DNA from: a virus
Strand: one strand, 5' to 3'
Virus record (IMG/VR): IMGVR_UViG_3300036785_000488
Span: 21,072-85,071 of that record
Length of the DNA stretch: 64,000 bases
Position 1 is the first letter of the stretch, and each line of letters begins with the position of its first letter. The position numbers and the translations under genes were made by a program. Below the pieces are notes generated by a model. That model had not been told where the DNA came from. It was given only the letters and a program-made list of their open reading frames with translations, and did no database searches. Shown piece after piece: positions 1-63,726 of this stretch.

Positions 1-426
1 GGCTTCGTCTACAAGTACGAGAACCGGGCAGTGGCTGTCCATGCCGTGATCGACGGCAAGCCACTGTGCGGCACCGAGGTGGATATGACATCCTTTGAGA
101 CCTACCTCGGACAGCCCGACGACATCACCTGTCGTCGGTGCAAGATGTCAGTCAGCCACCGTGGGCACACGGTCGAAGAGCCTGGCGCGCAGGCAAGTGC
201 TGACACAGTCCCGCAAACGCGTGAGCGGGACACCTTCACCGACCTCCTGGGGCACCTGCGTGCCTTCCATGGCATGCCCGACTGCTTCAGGGCGGTCGAC
301 GGCGTCGAGGACAACATCCGTGAGCTGCATGCCAAGTACCACCAGACACAGCCACCTGGGGCGAACTTTGGCAAGACCGCCCCTCCCCACTCTGCGGGAG
401 ATCTCACATATTTCTCTTCGCCCTGA
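1..426 (+). CDS. hypothetical protein, 5' end runs off the window
   Basis: Frame is open from position 1 to TGA 424-426; CxxC (CRRC) present. Confidence 0.5.
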   Translation, partial: GFVYKYENRAVAVHAVIDGKPLCGTEVDMTSFETYLGQPDDITCRRCKMSVSHRGHTVEEPGAQASADTVPQTRERDTFTDLLGHLRAFHGMPDCFRAVDGVEDNIRELHAKYHQTQPPGANFGKTAPPHSAGDLTYFSSP

Positions 427-463
427 CTTGCATCTGTCACAACCATCCTGTACCCTTATGGAC
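405..463 (+). promoter_or_regulatory. conserved leaderless promoter, copy 1
   Basis: TTTCTCTTCGCCCTGAC-TTGCAT(428-433)-17 nt-TACCCT(451-456)-7 nt-ATGGCTAC(464). Confidence 0.75.
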
Positions 464-1402
464 ATGGCTACCACTACCAAAACCAAGAGCACCAGCTCTC
501 CCAGGGACACCTACGCCGACGTGACAGCACGAGTGCTTGAGGCTCTCGACGCTGGCACGGTCATGTGGCACAAGCCCTGGGTCAGCACCGACGGCGGGCC
601 GGTCAACATCGATTCCAACCGCCGGTACCGGGGCATCAACGTGTTCCTGCTTGAGTTCACCGCCATGGAGAAGGGCTACAGCTCGTCTCGCTGGGGCAGC
701 TACAAGCAGATCGCCGCTCGGGGCGGGCAGGTCCGCAAGGGCGAGAAGGGCACGCTGGTTGTGTTCTGGAAGATCCTTCGCAAGGAGGACAAGGTCGACG
801 GCGAGACGCAGGTCAAGAAGATCCCCTTCCTGCGCCACTACACCGTGTTCAACGAGGACCAGGCTGACTGGGACGACCCCGAGACCGACAAGCGGCGCAA
901 GCCTGCTGAGCGCGTCGAGCGCGACCCCATCGAGGCGGCGCAGGAGCTGCTCACTGAGTACCTCGCCACCGGCCCCTCGCTGAGCCACGGGGGCGACAGG
1001 GCCTTCTACGTGCCGTCGTCCGACAGCATCCGCCTGCCGCACATCGGTGACTTCAAGAGTGCTGAGCACTACCACAGCACCCTGTTCCACGAGGTGACGC
1101 ACAGCACCGGCCACAGCAAGCGGCTGGCGCGTGACGGCATCGCCCAGGGCAGCTTCGGACGGTTCGGGGACGCGGTCTACTCCAAGGAGGAGCTGATCGC
1201 TGAAATGGGTGCAGCCATGCTCTGCGGCGTCGCTGGGATCGACCAGGCGGCGACCATCCCCGAGACCGCCGCCTACTTGGCGCACTGGCGTGACGCCCTG
1301 CGGGCCGACAACAAGCTGATCGTGCAGGCGGCGGCGCAGGCGCAGAAAGCTGCGGACCTCGTCCTCGGCACCACGTTCGACACCAACAAGGAGGAGTCAT
1401 GA
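464..1402 (+). CDS. ardC: ArdC-like antirestriction / ssDNA-binding protein with zincin-like C-terminal domain
   Basis: WHKPW, YRGINVFLL, W.SYKQ...GGQVRKGEKG, YTVFN.DQ, AFY.PSSDSI.LP, TLFHEVTHSTGH, YSKEELIAEMGAA; start moved to ATG 464 on the promoter spacing. Confidence 0.9.
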   Translation: MATTTKTKSTSSPRDTYADVTARVLEALDAGTVMWHKPWVSTDGGPVNIDSNRRYRGINVFLLEFTAMEKGYSSSRWGSYKQIAARGGQVRKGEKGTLVVFWKILRKEDKVDGETQVKKIPFLRHYTVFNEDQADWDDPETDKRRKPAERVERDPIEAAQELLTEYLATGPSLSHGGDRAFYVPSSDSIRLPHIGDFKSAEHYHSTLFHEVTHSTGHSKRLARDGIAQGSFGRFGDAVYSKEELIAEMGAAMLCGVAGIDQAATIPETAAYLAHWRDALRADNKLIVQAAAQAQKAADLVLGTTFDTNKEES

Positions 1403-10167: not shown

Positions 10168-10710
10168 TTACTTGACCGGCGAGACGTACTCGGGTGGGCT
10201 GAACGGCGGCAGGTTGCCCGTCAGGAACGCCACCAGCTTCTCCTTCAACTCGTCGGTCCACTCACCGTCACCACCGTCGCCGCCCAGCGGCGGCAACACG
10301 ATGGGGTGCGCCGGAACGACCGGGATGTAGATCGGGTGCTCAGGGCTGAGTCCTGAGTCGGGCGGCGGCGGCACCGGGATGTAGATCGGCGGCGTCGGGA
10401 AAGGCTCGTTGGCCCCGCCCCAGGTGCCCAGTGGCGGCAAGCCACCAGGTGCAATCGGGTGCGACGGCCCCGGCTGTGGTCCCGGCCCACCGATGTCGAC
10501 GTACTCAGGAGGCTGACCACCCCAGGTACCCAGCGGCGGCAGCGTCGGGAAGTAGATGGGCGGTGTCGGGAACGGCTCGTTTCCACCACCCCAGATACCT
10601 GGAGGGAAGACATCAGGCGGCGGGTCTACCGGCAGATAGATCGGGGGCATGGGGTGGGCGTCAGCGGGGGCGGGGACGTACGCCTCAACGACTACGAACT
10701 GCTTGGGCAT
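10168..10710 (-). CDS. Pro-rich repeat protein
   Basis: Repeats G[IT]WGG.NEPFPTPPIY and P.HPI; GAAAGGA upstream. Confidence 0.7.
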   Translation of the reverse strand: MPKQFVVVEAYVPAPADAHPMPPIYLPVDPPPDVFPPGIWGGGNEPFPTPPIYFPTLPPLGTWGGQPPEYVDIGGPGPQPGPSHPIAPGGLPPLGTWGGANEPFPTPPIYIPVPPPPDSGLSPEHPIYIPVVPAHPIVLPPLGGDGGDGEWTDELKEKLVAFLTGNLPPFSPPEYVSPVK

Positions 10711-10769
10711 GGGCTGGTCCTTTCGTTCAGGCTCAGTCTTACAGGCGTGGCTTAACGCAGCGTGACCAC

Positions 10770-12242
10770 TCAGTCCATGGTCCGACGAACCGCATCCTCG
10801 GCACGGTTGGGGTCCACTTTTCGGAGGCCCTCGGCCCGCTCGGCCCCGAAGAGCCGCGCCAGCACGCCCGCCTGGGTGCGTCCCTCGACGGTCACCTTCA
10901 AGAAGTCTCGGTTGTCCTGGATCTCCTTGACGCTCTGCGTCATCCGCATGAATCGGTCCAATTCGGACGACAGGTTGGCGTCGGGGTAGCCGCCCTGGAG
11001 CTGCTCGGAGAAGAAGCCGAAGGCGACCCGCTGGCCCTGCATCTCCAAGAGGCTGTGCAGAATCGACATCAGTTGATCACGATTCCGTATCTGAATCGGG
11101 ATCGAGTACTTGCACGACGAGCCAAGTTCAAAGAGAGGACACACTGCGGCGAGCGAGCACGAGTCGCATTGACGCAGCCCAGCTCCATTCATGACGGCGA
11201 CGTCGTTGGTGACCTCGACAGTGCCCGTCCCGTTCGGATTCTCCATGACGGTGGTGTGCGGGCGGAAATCGAACACCGGCAGAGGCCGGATGACGTCGGG
11301 CAGGTGCGACCCGTTTGAAGCGGGTTCAGGAGCTAAGTGATCAACTGCCTGTTCGGGCAGAGGCGCAGTTTCCGGGGGAGTCGGATGTCCATTTGCAGTT
11401 GATCCATTACGTCGTTTGAGCAGCTTGGCGCGTTGCGGCCCCTCCATGGACTGCTCCATTTGCCGCCAGGCCCATACCGTGTAGCGGGCGACCTCGTCGG
11501 AGTCGTCGTTGACAATTTTGTCAGCGTCGAACCCGGCGGCAGTGAAGTGGCTGCGGTGCCGACGGCGGATCTTCTCCTTGTCGTCAGCCGGATACCGGCG
11601 CAGCCGGTTCTCATCCCAGATCATGGTTTCTCCAAAGCGCGTAGGAGAAATCCACGAGGACGAGACGAGCGTCGAGTACAGCCCTCCTGGGGCGTCGTAA
11701 GGGTGCGAGAACGACAGCCCATGCAGGTTGATCTTGGTCCGACGCACGAGGGACGAGAGCACGTTCTGGGTCCGGTCCTCAACCGGCGGGACGCCGAGAT
11801 TGGGGTGCTTCTCGACCATGGTTCGGAGAAGAGGCGCGCCCCAGTCCTCGTGCCATACCGGGACGAACTTGTCGTCGGCCACACCCGCCCAGACCTCACG
11901 CTGGCGCAGCACCCAGTCCAGACCCAGGCTCCCGGCGTCGTATTCGGTGAAGAAGGCGATCCTCTCCAGGTTGTCCTGGACGAAGCCCAGGTAGGCCGAG
12001 AGGAACTCCTCGTGCTCGGTCTGGCTCCAGTTCTTGCGCTCGGTCGCAGAGCTGCCCGACATGACGAAGATCTTCTGCTCATCGGGGAAGACGTCAGCTA
12101 GTAACCAAGGTTGTTTAGTGATTCGTGGCTGGAGGTGGAGGTAGTTGACGGCGACGTGCGGCACGCCCTCGGCGGCGAGGAGCTTGCGCCAAGCCGGGGT
12201 CTCGGCCCCGGCGAAGTACAACTCAAGATGACGCAGGCTCAT
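10770..12242 (-). CDS. hypothetical protein with C-terminal Cys cluster
   Basis: 490-aa ORF; LYFAGAE start; CDSC....CP......C motif. Confidence 0.75.
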   Translation of the reverse strand: MSLRHLELYFAGAETPAWRKLLAAEGVPHVAVNYLHLQPRITKQPWLLADVFPDEQKIFVMSGSSATERKNWSQTEHEEFLSAYLGFVQDNLERIAFFTEYDAGSLGLDWVLRQREVWAGVADDKFVPVWHEDWGAPLLRTMVEKHPNLGVPPVEDRTQNVLSSLVRRTKINLHGLSFSHPYDAPGGLYSTLVSSSWISPTRFGETMIWDENRLRRYPADDKEKIRRRHRSHFTAAGFDADKIVNDDSDEVARYTVWAWRQMEQSMEGPQRAKLLKRRNGSTANGHPTPPETAPLPEQAVDHLAPEPASNGSHLPDVIRPLPVFDFRPHTTVMENPNGTGTVEVTNDVAVMNGAGLRQCDSCSLAAVCPLFELGSSCKYSIPIQIRNRDQLMSILHSLLEMQGQRVAFGFFSEQLQGGYPDANLSSELDRFMRMTQSVKEIQDNRDFLKVTVEGRTQAGVLARLFGAERAEGLRKVDPNRAEDAVRRTMD

Positions 12243-12448
12243 GGCTTCTTCAGACTCTCAGACGCCTGGATGAACGCCTTGGACAGGTAGCGACGGGCGG
12301 TCTCCTTGGCTGAGACCCGCATCTCCTCACGGGCTGCCCGCACCGCTTCTCGGAGGTCCTTTGCCACCTGGTGGGCCTCCCTGGTGGCCTGCTCTAAGGC
12401 AAGCCGCTCTGTGGTGATCGCCATCACTTCTTCTGGGTCAGGACTCAT
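12239..12448 (-). CDS. small coiled-coil protein
   Basis: Coupled ORF. Confidence 0.55.
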   Translation of the reverse strand: MSPDPEEVMAITTERLALEQATREAHQVAKDLREAVRAAREEMRVSAKETARRYLSKAFIQASESLKKP

Positions 12449-12899
12449 GGAGCGGATCCCGGTGTACGTCGGCCTTCACTGAAGGACCGTAATAGCCAAA
12501 TTCATTGAGGTCATCCCCGGCAAAGCGGACGTGGTGAGCGGGCACCTGGGCCTTGAGCGTGGGCAGATCCTGCTTCGGATCGTCGGGATGCTTGGCGTGC
12601 TCGGCGGCGTACCGGGCACTGAGCGTCACCCAGTCCCCGTGGTTAATGTGACCGACGCCCCTGGGGGCGGCTCGGTAGATGGTGGCGGTGTGGTCGGGGT
12701 TGCCGCGGGCGGCACGGATCTGGCGGATCGACTCCTGGGGGTGTGCTGTCCCGGTGAAGTGGTGGGGCTTCTCGTAGACATCGAGGCCATGCATGAAGTT
12801 GCCGGGTTCGGTCAGGTCGTGCAGTGGCGGGCCATCAGAGGTCGGGATGTGCCCGCCCTGGTAGTCCTCAAACTGCTCCCCTAGAGCTTCTCGGCTCAT
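12438..12899 (-). CDS. leader-tagged protein (MSREALGEQF), ART-like domain of polyvalent-protein type
   Basis: TIYRAAP...INHGDWVTLS..YA.EH...GDDLNEFGY. Confidence 0.65.
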   Translation of the reverse strand: MSREALGEQFEDYQGGHIPTSDGPPLHDLTEPGNFMHGLDVYEKPHHFTGTAHPQESIRQIRAARGNPDHTATIYRAAPRGVGHINHGDWVTLSARYAAEHAKHPDDPKQDLPTLKAQVPAHHVRFAGDDLNEFGYYGPSVKADVHRDPLHES

Positions 12900-13240
12900 T
12901 CGTAATCCTCAGACCGAGGGCGTCTTCCTTCAGCCACAAGCGAGAGGCGCGAAGACTTCACAGGATCATGTGTCTTATAGCTCTTCCATCCCTGCTTTTC
13001 TGTCTGTGCCAATGCCAGATCCCCCTCCACCGTTTCAAAACCAGGATCACGATGAAGTTTCAGTCCTTGCGTGTGGACTTTCCAAACATCTACACCCGTA
13101 TGGCTTTTGAGCGGCTCCGTCGACATAAAGACAGCATCCCCCACTCCTTTGCGAAGACCCTGACGTTGAATGCTCTCTCGATTCGTCGGATAAGAGATGT
13201 GGTACATGAACTGCTGTGGACTGAGTGCTTCGTGACTCAT
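12896..13240 (-). CDS. leader-tagged protein (MSHEALSPQQF), KptA/DarT-like ART fold
   Basis: YHIS...NRESIQRQGL...AVFMS...VWKV. Confidence 0.65.
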   Translation of the reverse strand: MSHEALSPQQFMYHISYPTNRESIQRQGLRKGVGDAVFMSTEPLKSHTGVDVWKVHTQGLKLHRDPGFETVEGDLALAQTEKQGWKSYKTHDPVKSSRLSLVAEGRRPRSEDYE

Positions 13241-13617
13241 GCCGGTTCCCAGTCCCCTGCTGTGGCATCGATCCGCAGCCGTTTGGGCAACCGCTCACCC
13301 AATGAACGCGCCCAGGCTTCACCCTCCCCCGTCCGGTCGGACGAATGCCGAGGAGGGCGCACACCACGGGTCTCGGCGGCGATCCCCTGGGCATGACGGT
13401 ACACAGCGGTGGCGATGCCCTGGCGTCGCACCTCTGGGGAGGTCGCGATGTTGCCGATCTCCCCGGTCTTGTGATGCCACATGATCATGCCCACGTTCGT
13501 CGCACCGCCGCCACCGTACGCCCGCACCTCATGATGAGAGCTACCCCCCATCTCCCTGGGCGTGGCCTTCTTGAAGACGTAGTGAAACTGCTCCGGGTTC
13601 AGAGCACGGTGGCTCAC
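13237..13617 (-). CDS. leader-tagged protein (MSHRALNPEQF), GNAT acetyltransferase
   Basis: Acetyl-CoA motif A: I.TSPEVRRQGIATAVY; S..RT.EG.AW. Confidence 0.75.
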   Translation of the reverse strand: MSHRALNPEQFHYVFKKATPREMGGSSHHEVRAYGGGGATNVGMIMWHHKTGEIGNIATSPEVRRQGIATAVYRHAQGIAAETRGVRPPRHSSDRTGEGEAWARSLGERLPKRLRIDATAGDWEPA

Positions 13618-13817
13618 ACCGGCTGGCGCGGTCCCCGTGCCCTGCCGTCAACGAGGTAGAAGGCCCCGATGGCGATGTCGACCAGGAAGCTCAGGAACGC
13701 CGCCATGAACCATGTGTACCACCAAGTGCTCCAAAGCTGGCCGGTGGCCGACGCACTGGCGATGATGCCCAGGACGACGAGCACGATGGCTCCTACAATG
13801 AAAAGTCGGAAATACAT
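13614..13817 (-). CDS. small membrane protein, 2 TM
   Basis: Two hydrophobic segments; AAAGGAG upstream. Confidence 0.65.
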   Translation of the reverse strand: MYFRLFIVGAIVLVVLGIIASASATGQLWSTWWYTWFMAAFLSFLVDIAIGAFYLVDGRARGPRQPV

Positions 13818-13829
13818 CCCGGCTCCTTT

Positions 13830-14378
13830 CTATTTCTGCAATCGATGTACGACCGTGCGGTGGTGGCCCTCGGCCAGCCAGCGGGTGCCGCCGTGTTCAT
13901 AGTGCTCGGGCAGATACGGGATGCCTTCTGGGTGTTCCTCTACGGGCTGGGCGTAGAGGCTGCCACCGGCAGAGCGTTCCTCTCTCACCCGTCGAGCAGC
14001 CGGATGCCCGAAGTCTTCAAAATGCTCGGGCGGTCCCTCCTCGGCGTAACGGCGCAGCGTCGGCGTGTGCAGGTGGCGCTGCGAGGTCATCACCCGCCCA
14101 CGGGGATAGCTGAAGTCACTCTCCTGCTGCTCCTGGTAGCCCTCGGTGGCGATGTGTGGGGCGTCAACACCTCGTTTGGTTTGATGAATATCGGCCCGGT
14201 GCATGACGTGCTTGGCGACGCGTCCGGTGATCACCTTGGGCACCTCTGATCCTCCGAGGGAGGGATGCAGCCCCATCTCATGCGCCACCGGACCCAGGTG
14301 CTCCTTGCCCTCATCGATCTCTGAAATGTCCTTCATGATGAGGTGGAACTGCTCGGCGTTCAGTGCTCGATGACTCAT
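13830..14378 (-). CDS. leader-tagged protein (MSHRALNAEQF), ParB/Srx-like C-terminus
   Basis: VMTSQ..L ... WLAEGHHRTV. Confidence 0.65.
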   Translation of the reverse strand: MSHRALNAEQFHLIMKDISEIDEGKEHLGPVAHEMGLHPSLGGSEVPKVITGRVAKHVMHRADIHQTKRGVDAPHIATEGYQEQQESDFSYPRGRVMTSQRHLHTPTLRRYAEEGPPEHFEDFGHPAARRVREERSAGGSLYAQPVEEHPEGIPYLPEHYEHGGTRWLAEGHHRTVVHRLQK

Positions 14379-15001
14379 CGCAGATGCGGGTACTCCTTCC
14401 GCACATGCTCGGGGATCTGCTCCCCGCGCTGGTGAGCTTCGGTGACGTAGTCCTCATGCGTCTTGAAACCAGACCGGTGAGGGACGATGGCCGAGATGTG
14501 TTCTCGTTCGTCCTCGGGCTTGTATGCCCCCTCGGCGGCGTTGACGTAGAAGATGCCCCGGCGCATTTTCTGGCCTTTGGCCTTCAACCCTGCCTGCACC
14601 GCATTGGCCCGGACATCGGACATCGGCTCCGTGGAGCTACGGCGAGGCCAATCGGCCATCTCCCCGCGAGGGATTCCTTCTCGGATATTCCAGTCTGTCC
14701 CTGGTCCGCGAGAGGGATGAATGCGGGGAGTGTTCGTCATGGGGGCGGTGATGTGACCGCCGTAGAGTTCGGCAGTCGGGGAGTCTTTGATGCGTTGCTC
14801 TCGCGTCTCAGCCACATTGTGACCAGCGATGCGCGCCGAAAGAGCATCAACGGCTGCCTCACGGGTCCCCACATGGAAGGGCTGATCCTGGTGGCCGATG
14901 ATCCCCGTCGGTGTGCCGTGGAACCATGTACCGGGCTGCGACTCAAACTCCTGGCGAGTCATCTCATGGAACTGCTGAGGGCTAAGAGCGCGATGACTCA
15001 C
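14375..15001 (-). CDS. leader-tagged protein (MSHRALSPQQF), ART-like domain
   Basis: WFHGT...FHVGT.EAA...GIFYVNAAEG. Confidence 0.65.
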   Translation of the reverse strand: MSHRALSPQQFHEMTRQEFESQPGTWFHGTPTGIIGHQDQPFHVGTREAAVDALSARIAGHNVAETREQRIKDSPTAELYGGHITAPMTNTPRIHPSRGPGTDWNIREGIPRGEMADWPRRSSTEPMSDVRANAVQAGLKAKGQKMRRGIFYVNAAEGAYKPEDEREHISAIVPHRSGFKTHEDYVTEAHQRGEQIPEHVRKEYPHLR

Positions 15002-15156
15002 TTGTACCGCTCCGGGTCAAAGAGGGTTTGCTGCTCCTCGATGGGATGAAGAGGCCCAGCCTTTCTCAGCCATGGGGCTTCTTCGTAGAGATGGTGCTCC
15101 TCACAGTAAGGACAATGCTGCCCGAACTGCTCTGAACTAAGAGCGCGATGACTCAC
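14982..15156 (-). repeat. 20-nt direct repeat encoding the shared leader start
   Basis: GTGAGTCATCGCGCTCTTAG is identical at 15001-14982 and 15156-15137; degenerate copies start the genes at 14378, 13617, 13240 and 12899. Confidence 0.85.
14998..15156 (-). CDS. 52-aa leader-tagged peptide (MSHRALSSEQF), not in ORF track
   Basis: GTG 15156 to TGA 14998: MSHRALSSEQFGQHCPYCEEHHLYEEAPWLRKAGPLHPIEEQQTLFDPERYK. Confidence 0.75.
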   Translation of the reverse strand: MSHRALSSEQFGQHCPYCEEHHLYEEAPWLRKAGPLHPIEEQQTLFDPERYK

Positions 15157-15424
15157 GGTGCTTCTTCACGTTGTGACGCTGCATGCGCTGCTCTTGATGA
15201 CGGCGTGCCTCGGCCTTGATCGGCCTCAGAGCACGGTTCCCTTCTTCCTTGGAGTAGGCCAACGGAGGGTTATCGGGGTTGAACAGACGGCCCTGTCGGA
15301 GGCCCTCGTTCTCCTTCTCCGGTTCAACCACCTGAGGGTTGGTTTCACGCATACGTTGCTCAAGCGACGACCCCGGTACCGGCGTGGTGGCGAACTGCTT
15401 GGAGAGGACCCAGTGCTGTGTCAC
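15137..15424 (-). CDS. leader-variant protein (MTQHWVLSKQF)
   Basis: GTG 15424; variant L-S-x-Q-F leader. Confidence 0.6.
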   Translation of the reverse strand: MTQHWVLSKQFATTPVPGSSLEQRMRETNPQVVEPEKENEGLRQGRLFNPDNPPLAYSKEEGNRALRPIKAEARRHQEQRMQRHNVKKHRESSRS

Positions 15425-15431
15425 TGCGCCT

Positions 15432-15641
15432 TCACGCCTCTTCTTCTTCCTCACCAGGTTCAGTACCTGAGGGCTGCCGGTGCTCGGCGGTGTAGTCGTG
15501 AGAGAAAGCGGGCCGATACACGTTCGACGTCAGGTTCTGAATGCCACGCACGCGCGCTGCCAGCCCGTCCATGTTCCCCTGACCGATGATGTTCTGCTCG
15601 GTGTAGAACTGCTTGTTCGACAATGCTTCACTGGCGCTCAT
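15432..15641 (-). CDS. leader-tagged peptide (MSASEALSNKQF)
   Basis: ATGA overlap with the upstream gene. Confidence 0.65.
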   Translation of the reverse strand: MSASEALSNKQFYTEQNIIGQGNMDGLAARVRGIQNLTSNVYRPAFSHDYTAEHRQPSGTEPGEEEEEA

Positions 15642-16159
15642 GATGTGTCTGGCTCCATTTCGTTGAGGCGCGGATCTGAGATCTTCAGCTCGCGCTGACG
15701 TGTCATCTCCGCATCGATGTCTTCCCAGGGCTTCGGCAAGCGTTTGCGGTCGGGCCGATATTCCGCCCAGCGATACGTCGGGTTGACGAAAAAAAGACAA
15801 GGGAATCCGTTGGCACTGACAGCAAGGACAGCCTCGGGATCCGAAGAGACCACCAGGTTCAGATCGTGTCCTGCAGCTCGGAGCTGACCGGCATGTGCCA
15901 CCAGGAGAGCCGGGTCCGAGTAGTCAGTCCGCTGAGTGTCCCGATGCAAGAGATCCTCGTAGAAGCCCGGACGGCCCATGCCGTTGATGCGGCACCAGAA
16001 CTCGACCGAATGCTCGTCCTTCTCGGTGGTGGAGAAGACGATCTGGTACCCGGAGCGCAGGGCCTTGGCGAGCCTGACGCCCTCGACCACCGGCTGAAAG
16101 CCGTGGACAGTGCTGTGTTCGCCCAGGACCCCCTCAACGGTGATCAGGGCGGTGCTCAT
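15638..16159 (-). CDS. HAD-fold-like protein with degenerate motif I
   Basis: ALITVEGVL where DxDGxL is expected; LVVSSDPEAV. Confidence 0.55.
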   Translation of the reverse strand: MSTALITVEGVLGEHSTVHGFQPVVEGVRLAKALRSGYQIVFSTTEKDEHSVEFWCRINGMGRPGFYEDLLHRDTQRTDYSDPALLVAHAGQLRAAGHDLNLVVSSDPEAVLAVSANGFPCLFFVNPTYRWAEYRPDRKRLPKPWEDIDAEMTRQRELKISDPRLNEMEPDTS

Positions 16160-16419
16160 CAGCTTGAGTACTGGGAAGCCCTGGCTCCCCGGTTCTGCAT
16201 GTTGTCGGGACCGTAGGGGGCGGGCTGCGTCGGCTCGTTCTCTCTCAGCTCCCATGCCTCCCTCAGGAGGGACGGCCACTGGCCGGGATCCCGACCGGCC
16301 AGGGTGCCGTCGAAAAATGACGACCAGTTGGTGGCCTTCGGCGTGCGGCCAGCCGCCTTGGTCGTCACGCGCAGCGCCGGAGCTGCGCTAGGGACCGCCG
16401 GAGGTCCTGAGCGCCTCAC
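16159..16419 (-). CDS. hypothetical protein
   Basis: Coupled at both ends. Confidence 0.5.
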   Translation of the reverse strand: MRRSGPPAVPSAAPALRVTTKAAGRTPKATNWSSFFDGTLAGRDPGQWPSLLREAWELRENEPTQPAPYGPDNMQNRGARASQYSS

Positions 16420-16688
16420 TTCACCCTCTTGACCGTCATGTGGGTGTCCCCGCGCTCGATGGCCCCGGCCACCCGGTGATGGCCGTCACCGACGTAGTAC
16501 CGGCCCTGGTACGGGTGCACTAGGGGATCGGTGGAGATGTCACCGGGATCCTGGCGGGCGATATCGGCCACCTTGTCCTGGTTGACGTAATTCTGCGTGG
16601 CGACCACTTTGTCCAGGCGCACTTTTATGCGGGGCATGCGGGGGTTGGGTTTTTCTGCGAACTGCTTGGTCGACAGCGGCACTGACAC
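16416..16688 (-). CDS. leader-tagged ParB/Srx-like protein (MSVPLSTKQF)
   Basis: VATQNYV...P.V...GRYYVGDGHHRVA. Confidence 0.75.
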   Translation of the reverse strand: MSVPLSTKQFAEKPNPRMPRIKVRLDKVVATQNYVNQDKVADIARQDPGDISTDPLVHPYQGRYYVGDGHHRVAGAIERGDTHMTVKRVK

Positions 16689-16743
16689 GCCACGAGCTTA
16701 GGTGGCTCGGGTTGGCGCACCTGGGCCACTTATGCTGGTCCCG

Positions 16744-34515: not shown

Positions 34516-37500
34516 TAGCCCGTCCCTAAGTAATCCACGAATACGAATGTGATGTTACGGCCAGTTTGCCCAGCCCAAGCCGCAGAAGCCGAGCTTGCTA
34601 TCCGAAACTGATCACCGGCATTAGCTCTCACACTCTGATTGACTACGTGTGAGACCCCTCCTCCGCTATTAGTGTTTGAAATGGTGTATTGCTGAAAAAT
34701 AGTGGCTCCGTTCCCCGACTCCATGTTAAGCCATCCTTGTTGAGCTGCCCCCGTCGTAACACCACGTACTTGTGCTCCGATACGCCAAACTCCTGCTATA
34801 GGTGCCGTGATCAAACCGTTGGCGATGTTGTAAAGGTTGTAGTCGTCGTACACCTCAGTGTCGAAGGTGACTAAGCCATTGGTGGTGGGCCACGTAAAAG
34901 CGGCGTTGCGGTAAGCACTGGCATGTAAAACATCGCGAGCCTTTTTCCACGCACCACCGTTCAAAGACACCCAGACCTCACCTGATGTGTCCGTGAAGAA
35001 GTTGACCCCGGAGGGTGGCGGTACTTGTGGCGGAATGTATGGAACGCTCCCCGGTGTCGGTGTGCTGGTATCAACCCAGAGCAAACCTGCGGGCGGGGCG
35101 ATGGTCGGTGCGTTCGACGGTGGTGCAGTCGAGGCCACCTCTGCGTAGGCCACTGATGTAGCAAGAGGCCAAGGAAGATTCGCTATCCAGTTCGGTGAGA
35201 TCAACAACGCATTGTTGGCCCATGCCGTAGTGGGCATGGCGCTCTGATTCGCGATGTAAGCACCAGTGCCGAAGAGAAGCGTGACGTGACCACCAGGAGA
35301 GTTGACGTTTGACGCCTGAGTTTGAATGCCAACCGTGGCACCCGCCGGGGAGGATGGACTCCAAATCGTGAACATATACGGATGATTTGCCAACACGTTG
35401 ATCGGAGTCTGGAGTGTGATCGTGTTCCACGCACCAGGCGTCACCGATGCCGGGTTACCTACTGCAAGCTGAGTGGTAGTTGCCGGGTCCCACACCTGTA
35501 CTTGCCAGCCAGCCGTTGTCAAACCACCAGTGTTTGCAGCATCGCAATACCAGTCGACACTGCTCACCCAACCAGCAGTACTGAACTGAAACCGAAGTCC
35601 GATGTTGTAGCCCGATAGCTGCTGGCCGGAACCCTCTGTCAGATGGATGTTGTCAGCCGCTGCTGCAACACCTTTGGGGCCGTAAAGCAGGTCGTTCTGG
35701 GTATTTAAGTAGAAATCACCCGTTACTCCCTGATTGGCTGGTAACCCCGCTCCGCTCCAGACCGTGCCACCACCACTACCCGAAGATCCCTGGGCACCCT
35801 GTGCTCCTGCTGCTCCTTGCGCGCCAGCGGCTCCCTGAGCACCAACATTGCCTGCGATGCCAAGAGTCCAAGCGGCATACGTTCCGCTGCCTGCCACGGT
35901 GTCGATGTTGATCGTGAGCGAGGTGCCTGAATATGCCGTAACGGCACCTTCCATGTAGTTGGTCGGCGTGGTCGTATAAGCGGCACGTACACGCGCACCG
36001 ACCCCATAAGCGAGACCGGCTTGAGTTACGAAGACTTTTGATCCGACGCCAATCGCGAAAGAAGTTGCCGATGTAGCGGTGTAACCCGCACCTTGTGCGC
36101 CTTGCGCTCCTGTCGTCCCCTGAGCACCTGCTGCGCCTTGAGGACCCGTACTACCGGTTGCTCCAGCCGCACCCTGTGCTCCTGTTGTTCCTGGAGCACC
36201 GGTCGCGCCTTGTGCGCCTTGTGCTCCTGTCCCCGTCGCTCCTTGCGGACCTTGCGGTCCCGTGCTACCCGCAGCACCAGTAGCGCCCTGAGGCCCTGCA
36301 CCCCCAGTCGCTCCTGTTGCGCCTTGCGGACCTGCCACACCAGTCGCACCGGTAACACCTTGTGTACCTTGTGGTCCCTGTGCTCCTGTCCCTGTTGCAC
36401 CTTGAGTACCTGTTGCTCCTTGCGCTCCTGTCGAACCTTGGGCACCAGTTGCTCCCTGCGCTCCCGCTGCTCCTTGCGTCCCCTGTGGGCCGCGCAGCGT
36501 CGTGATGTACGTCACCGTCACCGAGGTCTGTGACTGCACCGAGGTCACGTTGCCGTAGAAGCCCAACGAGTTGGCGTTGGTCGACATCACGTTGTCGCCA
36601 ACCTTGATCGTGCGACCGGCGACAGCAGTGGGCACGATGGCTGCGGTGGTACCCGAGCCGTTCATCTGCGTGACGGTGGTCCAGTTGTCCAGGCCCTCTA
36701 GACCCTGCGGTCCTTGTGCTCCAGCGGCTCCCTGCGCGCCCGCCGCCCCTTGTGCCCCAGCAGCACCTTGAGCACCAACAGAACCCTGGGCACCCGTCGC
36801 TCCTTGAGCACCAGTACCCGTCGCACCCTGAGCACCTTGCGGACCCGTACCGCCGGTAGCTCCCGTCGATCCCTGCGGACCTATACTGCCAGTCGCTCCG
36901 ACTGCGCCCTGCGCTCCTTGAGCACCCTGCGCTCCTGTACCGGTCGCGCCCTGAAAACCTTGCGGGCCTTGAGCACCCGTCGAACCGGGAGCACCGGCTG
37001 CACCTTGTGCCCCAGCAGCACCTTGTGGTCCGGTAACGCTTGCGCCTTGAGCGCCCTGAGGCCCAGTGCTACCAGTCGCACCAGTTGCACCCTGAGGTCC
37101 AGCGCCACCAGTGGCACCGGTTACGCCTTGAGTACCCGTCGCTCCTTGCGCTCCTTGCGCTCCTGTACCTGTGACTCCCTGGGGACCTTGAGCACCCGTT
37201 GCGCCCTGCGTGCCCTGAAGACCCTGAGGGCCTTGGACTCCAACCTGGCCCGCGATCCCAATGTTCCATGAGACAAAGGTGCCGGTACCCATGGTCGTGT
37301 CGACATTGATCGTCAGCGTCGTACCCGAGTACGCCGTGACGGCACCCTCCATCCAGACAATCGCTGTATTGCTCGCGCGTGCTCGATCACCGACCAAGTA
37401 CGCCAGTCCAGCTTGCGTCGTGAACGTCTTCGATCCGGTACCGATGACGTTGCTCGTAGTCGAAGTAGCGGTGTAGCCAGCCCCCTGCGGACCCTGTGTA

Positions 37501-59319: not shown

Positions 59320-59858
59320 CAGTGGTACACCAGCTCTCTGCTCTCCAGCCACTCGTAGAGACCCTTGGGGACACGGTACTTACGTCCACGCAGGAACGTG
59401 TAGTTCGTACCGGCCCCGTAGGTCATGTCCTCGACATCGGTGTTGACCCGGATGACCCGCCATTCGTCTTCGACGGTGATCGGTTCCATCCCGAGGTCCA
59501 CCACCTCCAGAGGATTCGGAGCTGGCTCCTGAGCCTGTTGCTGGGTCTGCACCTCGCGGAAGTCCTTCATGGGGTTAGCAGCGACCTGAGGCTGTGACGG
59601 GTCAAGGATCTCATCGTCATCCACCGTGATCGGCGCGTCCTTGATCTGGTCGACCTTTTCCTGGGCGCTCTCGGGCAACTCCTCAAGCTCCCCAGTGATG
59701 GGGTCGAAGATCCCCTCCTGCTCGACCACGATGTCGACCTGGTTGACGAGACCAATCTCTTTCTGACGATCAGCCAATTCCTTGGCCTTTTCGTTGGTCA
59801 GACGCTGACGTTCTCGACCGGTGTGGTCGCCGCGTTGTGGTCCTCCGCGTGCTGGCAT
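59319..59858 (-). CDS. post-capsid (head-associated) protein
   Basis: TGATG-coupled to the capsid gene; IRVN.D.EDMTYG.G..Y.F..G.KY.VP. Confidence 0.65.
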   Translation of the reverse strand: MPARGGPQRGDHTGRERQRLTNEKAKELADRQKEIGLVNQVDIVVEQEGIFDPITGELEELPESAQEKVDQIKDAPITVDDDEILDPSQPQVAANPMKDFREVQTQQQAQEPAPNPLEVVDLGMEPITVEDEWRVIRVNTDVEDMTYGAGTNYTFLRGRKYRVPKGLYEWLESRELVYH

Positions 59859-61099
59859 CAGTTCGTCTGGGCGATGCAAACAGCCTGGTCAGTCACCAAG
59901 CCGAACCCCCATATCGCATACCAGCAGAGGGCGTGCTCACGTCCGAAGTCGAGGACGCCACCGTCACGCAGCTCGACCGGCAACGCGATGGCGTGACCGA
60001 AAGCGTTGTCACCGAGGTACATGGCCCAGTGCACAACCGGCGTACCGGCACCCGCAGGTTGGGTCTGCCGAATCTGCGTGGTCTCGATGTAGACCGTGTC
60101 GTTCAGGCGACCGATCTCTCCGAGCATGAAGTTCCCCGGTGCCGAGTACTTCGTGATTTCAATAAATTCTGGATTATCGCGAAGACGCCGGGACTGGTGC
60201 GGGTCGATGAAGCAGACGTACGTCTCACCGATGCGCGGCACGTTCTTCGTCGCCAACGTCTCGACCGCGTCCTTGGTCACCGACACGCTCATGTAGTACG
60301 TGCCCTTGTTGGTGCCCGTGGTCAGGTCGGTCTGCTGGGTGCCGACGGTACCGGCGTCGTAAGGCGACAGCGGAGTACGTGTCGCAGCCGGAGCCGGGAG
60401 GGCGTAGCCCCACAGCACCGACGAAGCGTTGTAGAGCGTGTCCCGCGCGGAGCCGTCAAGGTACTTCGCCATGTTGCGGCCCAGGAGCCGTGAGGACGAA
60501 GCCATGACGTCGTCAAAGGACGCGTTCAGAAGCAGCTCTGAGACTGCGACTGCGTAGCCCTGCTCTGCCACCGTGATGGCGTACTGGCTGGCGGTGAGCG
60601 CAGCGGTCTGCATACGCACACCTTCGACCAACTGTGTTGCGTCTCCGAGGTTGTTGTCATTCTGTTACCCCACCGGTTTCCCGGTGTGGGGCGGTCATTT
60701 CTGCCGCCCTCTGCATCTTTACCATCGATGCAGATCGGACTGTATCTTCACCTCCCGAGGGAGGGCTTCGCGTGCAGTCTCTACGGACTCGCCGGTTTCC
60801 CGGATTGCCTCGGTATTCCCCTGGTTTTGGGGGGGTTCACCGATACAGCGAAGTGGTGATCCTGCCAGTCACCCGACAGGACGGCCCATCGACCTCATGA
60901 AGTTGATCTGGAGACCTGGCTGGATGCCAAGCTCAGTCTTCTTCACGGCGAACTGCTCGAAACGCAACACCGGCATGCTCTGGAAGAGGATCTCCTTCGA
61001 CCAGATCACCTGGATAGCCGGGGACAACTGGGAGTTGGTCCCTGGATATCCGGTAGGTGAAGCACTCAGAAGGGGAGTGCCGGTGATGCTGGAAGGCAT
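59858..61099 (-). CDS. major capsid protein (N4-gp56 type), spliced: exon 1 61099-60892, exon 2 60657-59858 (335 aa)
   Basis: IWSKEILFQSMP.LRFEQFAVKKTEL...PG..INFMR|YNNLG...L.EG; EQGYAV.VSELL, GEIGRL....IET, DFGR....WY..WG; 208+800 nt = 336 codons. Confidence 0.92.
60658..60891 (-). ncRNA. group I self-splicing intron without ORF (234 nt)
   Basis: Exon ends in U, intron ends in G; P3 CUUCGC/GCGAAG, P4 UCGGU/ACCGA, P7 GACUG/CAGUC; R-like GUAGAGACUG and S-like AAGAUACAGUCC; P2, P8 and P9 hairpins; removal restores the frame. Confidence 0.92.
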
Positions 61100-61157: not shown

Positions 61158-61955
61158 CTATTGCCTGCGACTCGCTGAAGCCGCCCGCAACAATGCGTCA
61201 CGTTGGTCAGCGTACTCCTCGGGCGTCAGCGCCTTGAGGTCATCTGGCGTCAAGGTACGCGTCTGCGTCGCCGTCTCTGCTGGACCTATCGGAGGGGCGG
61301 TCACGCCGACGGTCGGACGAGACGCACTTACCTGCTGCAAAAATGCTTGCGTGTCGCCCACAATGCTCCCGGATATTTCCTGGAGTTCCTTGATCTTGAC
61401 GTCGATCTCCGCTTCGCTGTTACCGCCGACGAGTCCACGCAACTGCGGAACGATGGTCTCGCCTTCCTCCATCATGCGCTGGGCGAGATAGCTCTGGAGA
61501 CCAGCATGACGGCGCTCCTGCTCAAGCAGTGCGAGTGCCTTCTCCCGGTCCTGGTGCTCCTGCTCCAGCTTGGCTTCCCATTCCTGGTCCTTCTTCGCGA
61601 TTAAATCGCGCAGCTCCATCTCGTCTTCCTGCTTCTTTTTTTCAGCCTTCTCAAGCTCCCGCTGCGCCTTGGCTTCCGCCTTCTGCCGTTCCTCGTCCTG
61701 CTGGCGGAACCGGGCGAGTTCGGCGTTGGCCTCATCGATCTGGGTGGAGAGGGTGCTGAACCGGGCACGCTCTTCCTGGCGAACCTTCTCGATGTCCTCG
61801 GTGCTGAAGGTCTGAGGGTCGGTACCACTGCGGGGCTGACGCGGTGGTTGGGCCGGTGGGGCCGGTTCCTGTACCTCGACCGTGATGTTGTTCGGGTCAT
61901 TCGGATCCGGCGGCGGTGCTGCCTCTGGGTCCTGCTGTGTCGATGTGTCTGCCAT
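61158..61955 (-). CDS. capsid scaffolding protein
   Basis: Between portal and capsid; FSTEDIEKVRQEE, long coiled coil, C-terminal LKALTPEEYADQR..LL. Confidence 0.85.
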   Translation of the reverse strand: MADTSTQQDPEAAPPPDPNDPNNITVEVQEPAPPAQPPRQPRSGTDPQTFSTEDIEKVRQEERARFSTLSTQIDEANAELARFRQQDEERQKAEAKAQRELEKAEKKKQEDEMELRDLIAKKDQEWEAKLEQEHQDREKALALLEQERRHAGLQSYLAQRMMEEGETIVPQLRGLVGGNSEAEIDVKIKELQEISGSIVGDTQAFLQQVSASRPTVGVTAPPIGPAETATQTRTLTPDDLKALTPEEYADQRDALLRAASASRRQ

Positions 61956-61965
61956 GCCTGCCTTT

Positions 61966-63726
61966 CTACTCATCCTCTTCTGGGACTCGACGCTGGGGCA
62001 GCACAGCCCCGTGAGCGAGAGCAACGATGCGGCTCTGCATCTTCTTCACATCGTCGGAATCGGTCAGATCGATGCCGGGGAGCACGCCGAGCTTGGGCAC
62101 AGCTCCTGGGCCACTCGTCACACCCTGACCACCGGCAGACTTGACGCCACCACCGTTGCCCTTGCTTCCATTACCGTCGCCGCCCTGGGGCGGTGGCGGG
62201 TTCGGCACTGGGCCGTCGGGCGGGATCATGCCGGTCATGTTCACGGTGAAGCTCGCCGCCTGGGACTTGAGGAACTCCAGGGCGGCTTGCTGTTCAGTGT
62301 CATCGACCAGTTCGTGGAACAGCTCTTGGAGCTTCTCGTCGGGCTGCTCCTCGCCCAGCTCCATCAGCGCACCACGCTTGGACTCCAGGCCGAGGGCCAT
62401 CTTCACTTGCAGCTCGTTGAGCTTGACGAGTTGGTCGACAGGCAGCGGCGGCTGGAAATGGACCGTGTTCTCGTAGGTGATGTGGTCCATCGGGTCCAGC
62501 ATCGGCATCTGGTCGTCTTGGAGCGGCGGGTCGATCAGATCGTTGTACGTCAGCATCTCTGGCTCTTTCATGAAGAGCGTCTTGAGCGCCAACTTGTTGA
62601 CAGCGGCGAATCCCTCGCCGTACTGAGTGGCCTTGAGGTGGAACCGGTTCATCAACGGCTGGTACTGAATCGCCAAGGCGACACCGCTGGTATTGGAGAT
62701 CGCCTGCTCCTCACCGAGGGCCGTGACGGGCACGCCAGTCATCTCATGCATGGCCCTCTTCACGACCTCCAGGTACTTGATCGACATCTCGATCCCCTGG
62801 GGGTCGAAGAGAAGGTTGGAGATCTTGGCCTCCTTGTTGGGCACGCTCCAGGTCTGGTGCGTGCCCTTCTCCAGGTTGGCCGCACGCGCTCCGATGATCA
62901 CCGTCACCGGGGCGGCGTGGTAGTTGATGATGTCGCTGATGTCGGTGGCCTTCTCGTTGTACTCCCGGTTAAGGACAGTGATGTCCTGGATGTCAGGCAT
63001 GCCCCAGGGCGACGACGGGATCGGCAGGTTGGAGATGTGGACGATGGGGATCTCGCCCAGTGGGTTCTGCCTGGAGTCGATCAGTTCGTCGTTGACGTAC
63101 TCCTCGATCACGCTCTCGGTGAGCAACTCGGTGTACGTGAAAACTTGGCGGGTCCCCTCTTGAGTTGTCCCCCAGAAGCGGTACTTGAGTTTGAAGCGAA
63201 TTAGGCGATTTCGGTCGTGGGGATGCCACTCCGGGAAGCAGTACGCGGAGTTCAGAGGAAGGATGCGGACCTTCCCCGGATGTGGCATCCCTGACGGATC
63301 AGTCCACGGCTCCTCATAGGCCACTTTGATGAAGCAGTCCCCCGTGACCGATCCCATTGCACCGCACTCCCACAGCAGAGAGTCCTTCTTGTTGTCGATC
63401 TCCCAGATGCGCTGGAGCCGGGTAGGAACAATGGCACCCGTCGCGTCGGGGGAGCGGAAGCCGACGCCCTTGCCGAACACGAAGTTGGTGGTGAAGTCAG
63501 ACAGCGCGCGCGTGTAGTTGAACGTGAGCTGCGGGTCACCGAGGTCGGGGCGCTGCGCCCAGTGGTAGCCCAAGTAGAAAGCCCAGTTCATTGCGTATCT
63601 GTTCAAACGCGGCCCGTGTACCTCAAATTCTTCGTCGGCAAGCTCGACCAGCCCCAGCGGACTGATCTGGATAGTGAGGTCTGAGCTAGCGGCTCTATAG
63701 CTGGGCGACTGAAACTGGATTGCCAT
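61966..63726 (-). CDS. portal protein (SPP1 gp6-like)
   Basis: WAFYLG.HW, FNY, G.VTGD.F.KV, NPLG.IP.VHI.N....SPWG..D, SNTSGVAL..QY.PL. Confidence 0.92.
   Translation of the reverse strand: MAIQFQSPSYRAASSDLTIQISPLGLVELADEEFEVHGPRLNRYAMNWAFYLGYHWAQRPDLGDPQLTFNYTRALSDFTTNFVFGKGVGFRSPDATGAIVPTRLQRIWEIDNKKDSLLWECGAMGSVTGDCFIKVAYEEPWTDPSGMPHPGKVRILPLNSAYCFPEWHPHDRNRLIRFKLKYRFWGTTQEGTRQVFTYTELLTESVIEEYVNDELIDSRQNPLGEIPIVHISNLPIPSSPWGMPDIQDITVLNREYNEKATDISDIINYHAAPVTVIIGARAANLEKGTHQTWSVPNKEAKISNLLFDPQGIEMSIKYLEVVKRAMHEMTGVPVTALGEEQAISNTSGVALAIQYQPLMNRFHLKATQYGEGFAAVNKLALKTLFMKEPEMLTYNDLIDPPLQDDQMPMLDPMDHITYENTVHFQPPLPVDQLVKLNELQVKMALGLESKRGALMELGEEQPDEKLQELFHELVDDTEQQAALEFLKSQAASFTVNMTGMIPPDGPVPNPPPPQGGDGNGSKGNGGGVKSAGGQGVTSGPGAVPKLGVLPGIDLTDSDDVKKMQSRIVALAHGAVLPQRRVPEEDE

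Follow-up and report, generated by a model that had tools for sequence, protein, structure and literature searches.

Nine minus-strand genes between positions 12438 and 16688 of a viral DNA stretch begin with a related peptide of 10-12 residues and then continue as proteins that are unrelated to one another. The stretch (the window, 64,000 nucleotides) corresponds to bases 21072-85071 of the linear 85,071-bp virus record IMGVR_UViG_3300036785_000488, referred to below as G000; other phages and loci are designated by G and L numbers. We conclude that this N-terminal tag is conserved as a peptide and is under selection at that level. What the tag does is a more tentative matter. The reading that we prefer, with confidence a little short of even, is that it docks effectors inside the assembling head, so that they would be packaged and would enter the next host with the DNA.

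The nine tagged starts (12899, 13240, 13617, 14378, 15001, 15156, 15424, 15641 and 16688) are all in the sequence as the initial annotation described them, and the three genes interspersed among them lack the tag, as it also stated. The consensus is M-S-x-x-A-L-[S/N/G]-x-x-Q-F or shorter, for example M-L-S-P-R-Q-F, with a core L-[S/N/G]-x0-2-x-Q-F inside the first 12 residues. A 10-residue profile was built from 15 unique 11-residue tags and scanned over six frames. Strong copies score 26-36 bits and six of the nine array copies 17.5-36 bits, while the best non-tag position reaches 13.5 bits in the 85-kb G000 and 10-15 bits in seven related genomes. The three weak copies (starts 12899, 15424 and 16688) each have motif-keeping orthologues in other contigs. 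No copy was found elsewhere in the G000 genome, and no description of this tag was found in the literature searched. Loosely similar strings do occur elsewhere, because the tag core fits what we take to be the pattern of a helix N-cap with a hydrophobic staple.

The level at which the tag is conserved was addressed by comparing 21 different tag-coding sequences. Their start codons are ATG, GTG or TTG, Ala5 is specified by four codons and Leu6 by five, the Ser7/Asn position is written as AGY, TCN or AAY, and third positions agree in just 49% of pairs of same-residue tag codons (identity 0.49). The peptide is therefore the conserved entity, and the synonymous variation and peptide selection that had been proposed for the array are borne out. 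Conservation at the DNA or RNA level is ruled out by this analysis, with Ser2 alone tied to gene overlap: it is AGY in every case, which creates the 4-nt RTGA stop-start overlap found at 7/12 gene junctions, consistent with the earlier remark that most starts overlap the upstream stop. In both AlphaFold2 models, those of the 208- and 153-residue proteins, the tag is a low-confidence N-terminal extension. The tag is a portable, flexible peptide, disordered in the models, that is placed on unrelated folds.

Scanning relatives with the leader profile revealed the tagged, domain-variable arrays that had been anticipated, with about 35 further tagged genes in related soil-phage contigs. A search with the tag DNA pattern identified five more IMG/VR contigs and ten Joint Genome Institute metagenome contigs, and gave no match among 185,579 prokaryote genomes. 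Relatives fetched whole carry 3-7 tagged genes per genome, and one 9.7-kb contig has ten in a row. When the tags are stripped, the cargo of seven contigs falls into at least 17 families without detectable mutual similarity. In relatives, an HExxH zincin is found among the tagged proteins, along with Arr-type ADP-ribosyltransferases (ARTs; PF12120, 45.5 bits) and one ART of the C3 type (ADPrib_exo_Tox, PF03496, 36.6 bits). Orthologues of two cargo proteins retain a tag variant (L-G-x-Q-F) at identities as low as 33%. The array is flanked by the gene for a 173-residue protein and by that for DpdA in G000, G001 and G002, its content differing from one to the next, and in the tagless G009 these two genes directly adjoin. 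The interval is a variable cassette site, in keeping with the modularity claimed for the locus. A bin classed as a Gemmatimonadales metagenome-assembled genome includes a 110-kb phage-like contig on which both the tag and a homologue of the scaffold (37% identity) are encoded; this contig is the only hint, and a weak one, as to the host.

G009 (L054) is a distant phage of 91.6 kb without N-terminal tags. Its 78-residue protein (35707-35943, minus strand) ends in KHRALNTKQFK, a sequence to which the tag profile assigns 24.8 bits, far over background, and the neighbouring 94-residue protein (35120-35404, minus strand) ends in RHTGLNSWQFGD. A C-terminal function is thus possible, and the peptide may be able to work at either end of a protein.

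Table 1. Genes and intergenic region of the tag locus in window coordinates (aa, amino acid residues)
Feature	Start peptide	Position	Strand	Remarks
Intergenic region, 43 nt, divergent		16689-16731		Between tag operon and plus-strand operon
Operon gene 1, tagged ParB/Srx-like protein, 90 aa	MSVPLSTKQF	16416-16688	minus	DGHHR motif
Untagged conserved gene, 86 aa		16159-16419	minus	Homologues in G001, G005; no family match
Untagged conserved gene, 173 aa		15638-16159	minus	Homologues in G001, G002, G009; no Pfam or PHROG match
Tagged acidic peptide, 69 aa	MSASEALSNKQF	15432-15641	minus	Tagged orthologues in G001, G002, L070
Weakly tagged basic protein, 95 aa	MTQHWVLSKQF	15137-15424	minus	
Tagged peptide, 52 aa	MSHRALSSEQF	14998-15156	minus	CxxC; tag profile 33 bits
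Tagged protein, predicted ART fold, 208 aa	MSHRALSPQQF	14375-15001	minus	
Tagged protein, 182 aa	MSHRALNAEQF	13830-14378	minus	C-terminal EGHHR motif; ParB/Srx-like by motif alone
Untagged membrane protein, 67 aa		13614-13817	minus	Hydrophobic sequence
Tagged GNAT acetyltransferase, 126 aa	MSHRALNPEQF	13237-13617	minus	Pfam Acetyltransf_1 27.5 bits, cut-off 20.7
Tagged minimal ART/Tpt1-like protein (candidate), 114 aa	MSHEALSPQQF	12896-13240	minus	
Tagged domain, predicted ART fold, 153 aa	MSREALGEQF	12438-12899	minus	phrog_2579, E 3e-30
69-aa ORF and DpdA-like DNA transglycosylase, downstream in the same-strand run		10770-12448	minus	phrog_887, E 3e-44

The initial annotation recognised three ART-like proteins, one GNAT and two ParB/Srx-like proteins among the cargo (Table 1). 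Two of the ART assignments are upheld by modelling. The 208-residue protein was modelled with a mean predicted local distance difference test score (pLDDT) of 83.5, falling below 50 at tag residues 1-6, and its top structural matches are all of the ART fold (RES, MbcT and ParT; Z 4.7-5.4); 17 of its homologues retain a tag variant. For the 153-residue protein the mean pLDDT is 81.4, with residues 1-16 below 50, and ART-fold matches have Z up to 5.7. The VIA-align neighbours of the two models, although of modest Z, are almost exclusively ART-fold chains, and the structural neighbours span RES, MbcT, ParT, diphtheria-type toxins, Rhs ART toxins, Arr and Tpt1. We conclude that both proteins have the ART fold as modelled and are putative enzymes. 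The third, the 114-residue protein, is a lead only: among its Atlas neighbours are clusters of Tox-ART-HYD1 and of PARP, and it resembles Tpt1/KptA by structure with a template-modelling score of 0.61. The GNAT stands on its Pfam score. For the 90-residue ParB/Srx-like protein, Pfam gave VapB-like, DUF6551 and ParBc_2, all sub-threshold, and PHROG a weak ParB-like match (E 1.6e-3); tagged orthologues occur in G005, G006 and L070. The 182-residue protein, which has the EGHHR motif, has tagged orthologues in G001, G002 and L070 and returned no family match and no PDB match. The L070 orthologue of the 95-residue protein starts MMDPEVLSRQQF and has the downstream stretch GRLFNPDNPPLA in common with it. 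The label 'HAD-like' given earlier to the 173-residue protein found no Pfam or PHROG support and is dropped.

Taken together, fold searches, Pfam and a profile of the 153-residue family agree with the earlier view that the cargo are domain types of polyvalent and Alt-like effectors. The family profile matched 3,928 cluster representatives; the top matches are mostly domains of proteins of 500-4,000 residues, alongside GNAT, ParB-like and zincin modules, and matches in large proteins begin at profile positions 8-13, right behind the tag. A ParB-like module and the 153-residue domain are joined in phrog_2579 and in large multidomain proteins, and the characteristic polyvalent domain set (ART, ParB/Srx, GNAT, MPTase and others) is present among the cargo and the phage proteins. 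Phage polyvalent proteins, which have been argued to be packaged in the capsid and delivered, with T4 Alt cited as a packaged ART (Iyer et al. 2017, PMC5512222), share with the array the repertoire of ART, ParB/Srx, GNAT and zincin, the 153-residue domain being a frequent module. There, one polypeptide is cut by a peptidase, whereas here no single polypeptide with 2-15 effector domains is encoded and the effectors are separate open reading frames (ORFs), in different frames, with RTGA overlaps and their own tags. Because the cargo are domains found inside giant proteins, and the match starts after the tag, the array amounts to a dismantled polyvalent protein, each piece of which has been tagged.

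The composition and placement of the tagged proteins bear on their destination. We compared 33 tagged proteins (median length 132 residues, maximum 326) with 237 conserved untagged ORFs of like size. The median isoelectric point is 9.3 for the tagged set versus 6.0 for the untagged (Mann-Whitney p = 2e-4), and 29/33 versus 81/237 are cysteine-free (Fisher p = 3e-9), statistics that overstate independence because the tagged set includes orthologues, a discount to be counted with the objections below; by family, about 16/20 are cysteine-free. In G000, cysteine makes up 0.18% of tagged proteins, 0.73% of structural-module proteins and 1.17% of the rest. A tagged zincin gene lies immediately upstream of the portal gene in G005, two structural-module genes flank a tagged gene in G002, and a degenerate tag occurs on an Arr-like ART whose gene, in the Gemmatimonadales-bin contig, is placed between those for the portal and for the putative large terminase. 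No MuF domain (PF04233) was detected in G000, G001, G002 or G009, the control genomes being matched, so that the usual carrier of packaged toxins is missing. The small, basic, cysteine-poor cargo, the positions among structural genes and the absence of MuF are compatible with proteins that travel in the particle, which is a fit and not a proof.

On the packaging model, the phage lineage would have put a portable N-terminal address on small effectors that elsewhere are domains of giant polyvalent proteins. The tag would dock each protein in the assembling head, and the packaged proteins would enter the next host together with the DNA, where ADP-ribosyltransferases, the acetyltransferase and ParB-like proteins could act on host targets ahead of phage gene expression. 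Packaging, injection and a receptor on the capsid interior, scaffold or portal are what we infer from the genes, and any domain bearing the tag would then be loaded. More doubtful than packaging itself is the proposal of a protease-independent, portable peptide, 7-12 residues long, by means of which any small protein without cysteine would enter the head, in a lineage that has neither MuF nor giant polyvalent proteins.

Several observations weigh against packaging. No prohead protease of the HK97, T4 or ClpP type was found: Peptidase_S78, S77 and ClpP were unmatched in G000 (72% complete by CheckV), and S78 was likewise unmatched in the complete G001, G002 and G009, although divergent proteases could escape such searches and the S77 control matched 0/14 control genomes. 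A T4-like cleaved leader is therefore unsupported. The main array adjoins the DpdA gene, has a small regulatory region of its own in front and lies outside the head module. Two candidate counterparts in head proteins were rejected. Mimicry of the scaffold C-terminus (KALTPEEY) scores 7.5-8 bits, rank 23-26 of 141,832 six-frame positions, which is not significant; L-[S/T]-P-E-x-[F/Y] is, besides, a generic helix N-cap pattern. A capsid segment, RM-x-T-x-ALT-x-x-Q[F/Y], scores 14-15 bits in some distant relatives and 1.2 in the tag-bearing clade, and is considered a coincidence. A leader of the Prp/L27 type, cleaved by a host protease (LQFF|A of Firmicutes), was set aside; the one host hint points to the Gemmatimonadales, whose phylum is not known to have such a system.

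Packaging ranks ahead of an intracellular role, which we consider unlikely and yet the most serious competitor. The tag would here be a linear docking motif for a hub and would gather several enzymes at one site during infection; the hub could belong to the host (replisome, RNA polymerase, ribosome) or be encoded by the phage (DpdA, for example). The terminal peptide is predicted to be disordered, as in other short linear motifs; in three phages the array directly adjoins DpdA and has its orientation; the tag-like C-terminal peptide of the distant G009 suggests that position may be irrelevant; and the ending Q-x-x-[L/M]-F, present on some of the cargo and of its neighbours, presumably resembles bacterial sliding-clamp-binding motifs. 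Docking at such a hub would, however, leave unexplained both the small, basic and nearly cysteine-free character of the cargo and the tagged genes beside the portal and among structural genes, and the few genomes compared show no candidate hub whose occurrence follows that of the tag.

It is improbable, in our judgement, that the tag regulates how much of a toxic effector is present, or when, whether as a degron at the N-terminus, as a site of processing or by assisting translational coupling among the genes of an operon. Its strictly N-terminal position in the main clade, the invariable AGY at Ser2 with the resulting overlap at most junctions, and the potentially toxic nature of ART cargo would all suit such a role, but the codons besides Ser2 vary freely, so that the signal is not in the RNA; moreover, tagged genes also occur singly, outside arrays and in other operons, untagged genes of the same operon show the same overlaps, and a degron would not predict the bias in cysteine and charge. 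Least probable is a non-covalent polyvalent complex, packaged or not, in which tags join the separate proteins to each other or to a phage-encoded scaffold: the array does hold the domain set that is fused in polyvalent proteins, including the ParB-like and 153-residue domains, but the analysis found no conserved partner that lacks the tag and has repeated binding sites, and close relatives differ widely in array copy number and composition, as would be expected of independent cargo sooner than of a fixed complex.

Among known systems, the tag appears by analogy to work most like the capsid-targeting sequence (CTS) of phage T4 with its polymorphic internal-protein loci. One common leader is carried by diverse internal proteins in T4 (PMC3012670), and in both systems a short N-terminal peptide precedes unrelated, polymorphic, mostly small basic proteins (IPI, IPII, IPIII and Alt in T4), an ADP-ribosyltransferase among them, that are encoded together at a locus of variable content (PMC3012670, PMC5512222). 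The CTS differs in having no sequence similarity to the tag; neither a gp21-like or other prohead protease nor a cleavage motif common with head proteins was found in the tag phages; and the tag phage encodes a portal of the SPP1 type as well as a separate scaffold, the packaging of its tagged proteins being putative. We do not file the tag with the T4 CTS, because the defining protease was not found and a place in the virion is putative. The MuF polymorphic toxins of temperate phages resemble the tagged set in combining a constant head-associated N-terminal module with variable toxins such as ARTs (Jamet et al. 2017, PMC5576092). They differ in that the constant part here is a peptide of 7-12 residues and not a MuF domain. 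In the encapsulins, which are non-viral compartments, cargo-loading peptides are usually C-terminal. By analogy, these too are short disordered terminal peptides, and the tag could similarly dock diverse enzymes inside a shell of the HK97 fold; the sequences differ, and docking of the tag to the capsid is putative.

About 3 kb separate the putative large terminase from the portal, and this interval constitutes a second variable locus (G001, G002, G005, contig 151 of G006, and G008), in which gene content varies by phage; zincin genes and ART-like genes occur there, and some of these bear the tag. A second portable motif occupies the very C-terminus. IPGQG[K/R]LF is the ending of most homologues of the 208-residue ART (alignment A2), and ends of the GQG[K/R]LF type occur also on an unrelated tagged C3-type ART (G005 81470-82108) and on a 469-residue protein upstream of the portal (G005 10533-11942), L001 being a further locus for the motif. 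The scaffolds of distant relatives (L035-L045) end in GQGLF[G/S], and proteins encoded between terminase and portal in G002, G008 and L033 have Q-x-x-[L/M]-F near their ends. The GQG[K/R]LF end and the scaffold do not co-vary in G005. It is suggestive that this end could serve for docking to the portal or capsid, or as a sliding-clamp-binding motif.

In the divergent region in front of the array, a -10-like TAAGCT lies 6 nt ahead of the GTG start, together with an inverted repeat, GTGGC...GCCAC. The TARRCT hexamer, the 6-nt spacing and the start codon are conserved in four related loci (including G005, the Gemmatimonadales-bin contig and L070), and the TAAGCT-spacer-start motif is unique within the window; scans for sigma-70 promoters and terminators did no better than shuffles. 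This arrangement suggests a leaderless first gene with an operator. A tag-free protein with ArdC-N and MPTase-PolyVal domains (window 95-1402, plus strand) probably starts at an internal M-A-T and fits the leaderless ATGGCTAC gene class. At the other end of the array, the DpdA-like gene (queuine tRNA-ribosyltransferase family; 10770-12242, minus strand) is kept in G001, G002, the Gemmatimonadales-bin contig and G009, mostly beside the gene for the 173-residue protein, and suggests 7-deazaguanine modification of the DNA.

G000 has a G+C content of about 62% and is a contractile-tailed, probably temperate phage, because it encodes an SPP1-type portal, a tail sheath, a baseplate protein, an NlpC/P60 protein and a tyrosine integrase. 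The portal and scaffold genes occupy window positions 61966-63726 and 61158-61955, respectively. The major capsid gene is read as two ORFs, 60869-61099 and 59858-60631 (window 59858-61099, minus strand), and is a single continuous ORF of about 340 residues in relatives, so that the split would fit an intron. No near relative was found at the DNA or protein level among 50,697 GenBank phages. A soil metagenome, which may be its source, is the sole full holder of the sequence in public runs, and no RNA holder is listed among them.

As far as the searched literature shows, the peptide, the lineage and the split-polyvalent layout are new. If protease-independent loading is true, the tag would be a phage counterpart of the peptides that load cargo into encapsulins; the set of injected effectors could be deduced from the sequence, and the tag could be fused to foreign proteins in order to load them. 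It would also be a short peptide candidate for loading proteins into capsids. Even with a receptor outside the virion, a docking peptide on about 20 unrelated effector families would provide a handle on their targets. Should the tag prove to be a loading signal, it would name from sequence the packaged effectors of an uncultured soil-phage group, link the large unannotated ART-like family of the 153-residue protein to such delivery, and imply that the polyvalent-protein strategy can be divided into separately addressed parts.

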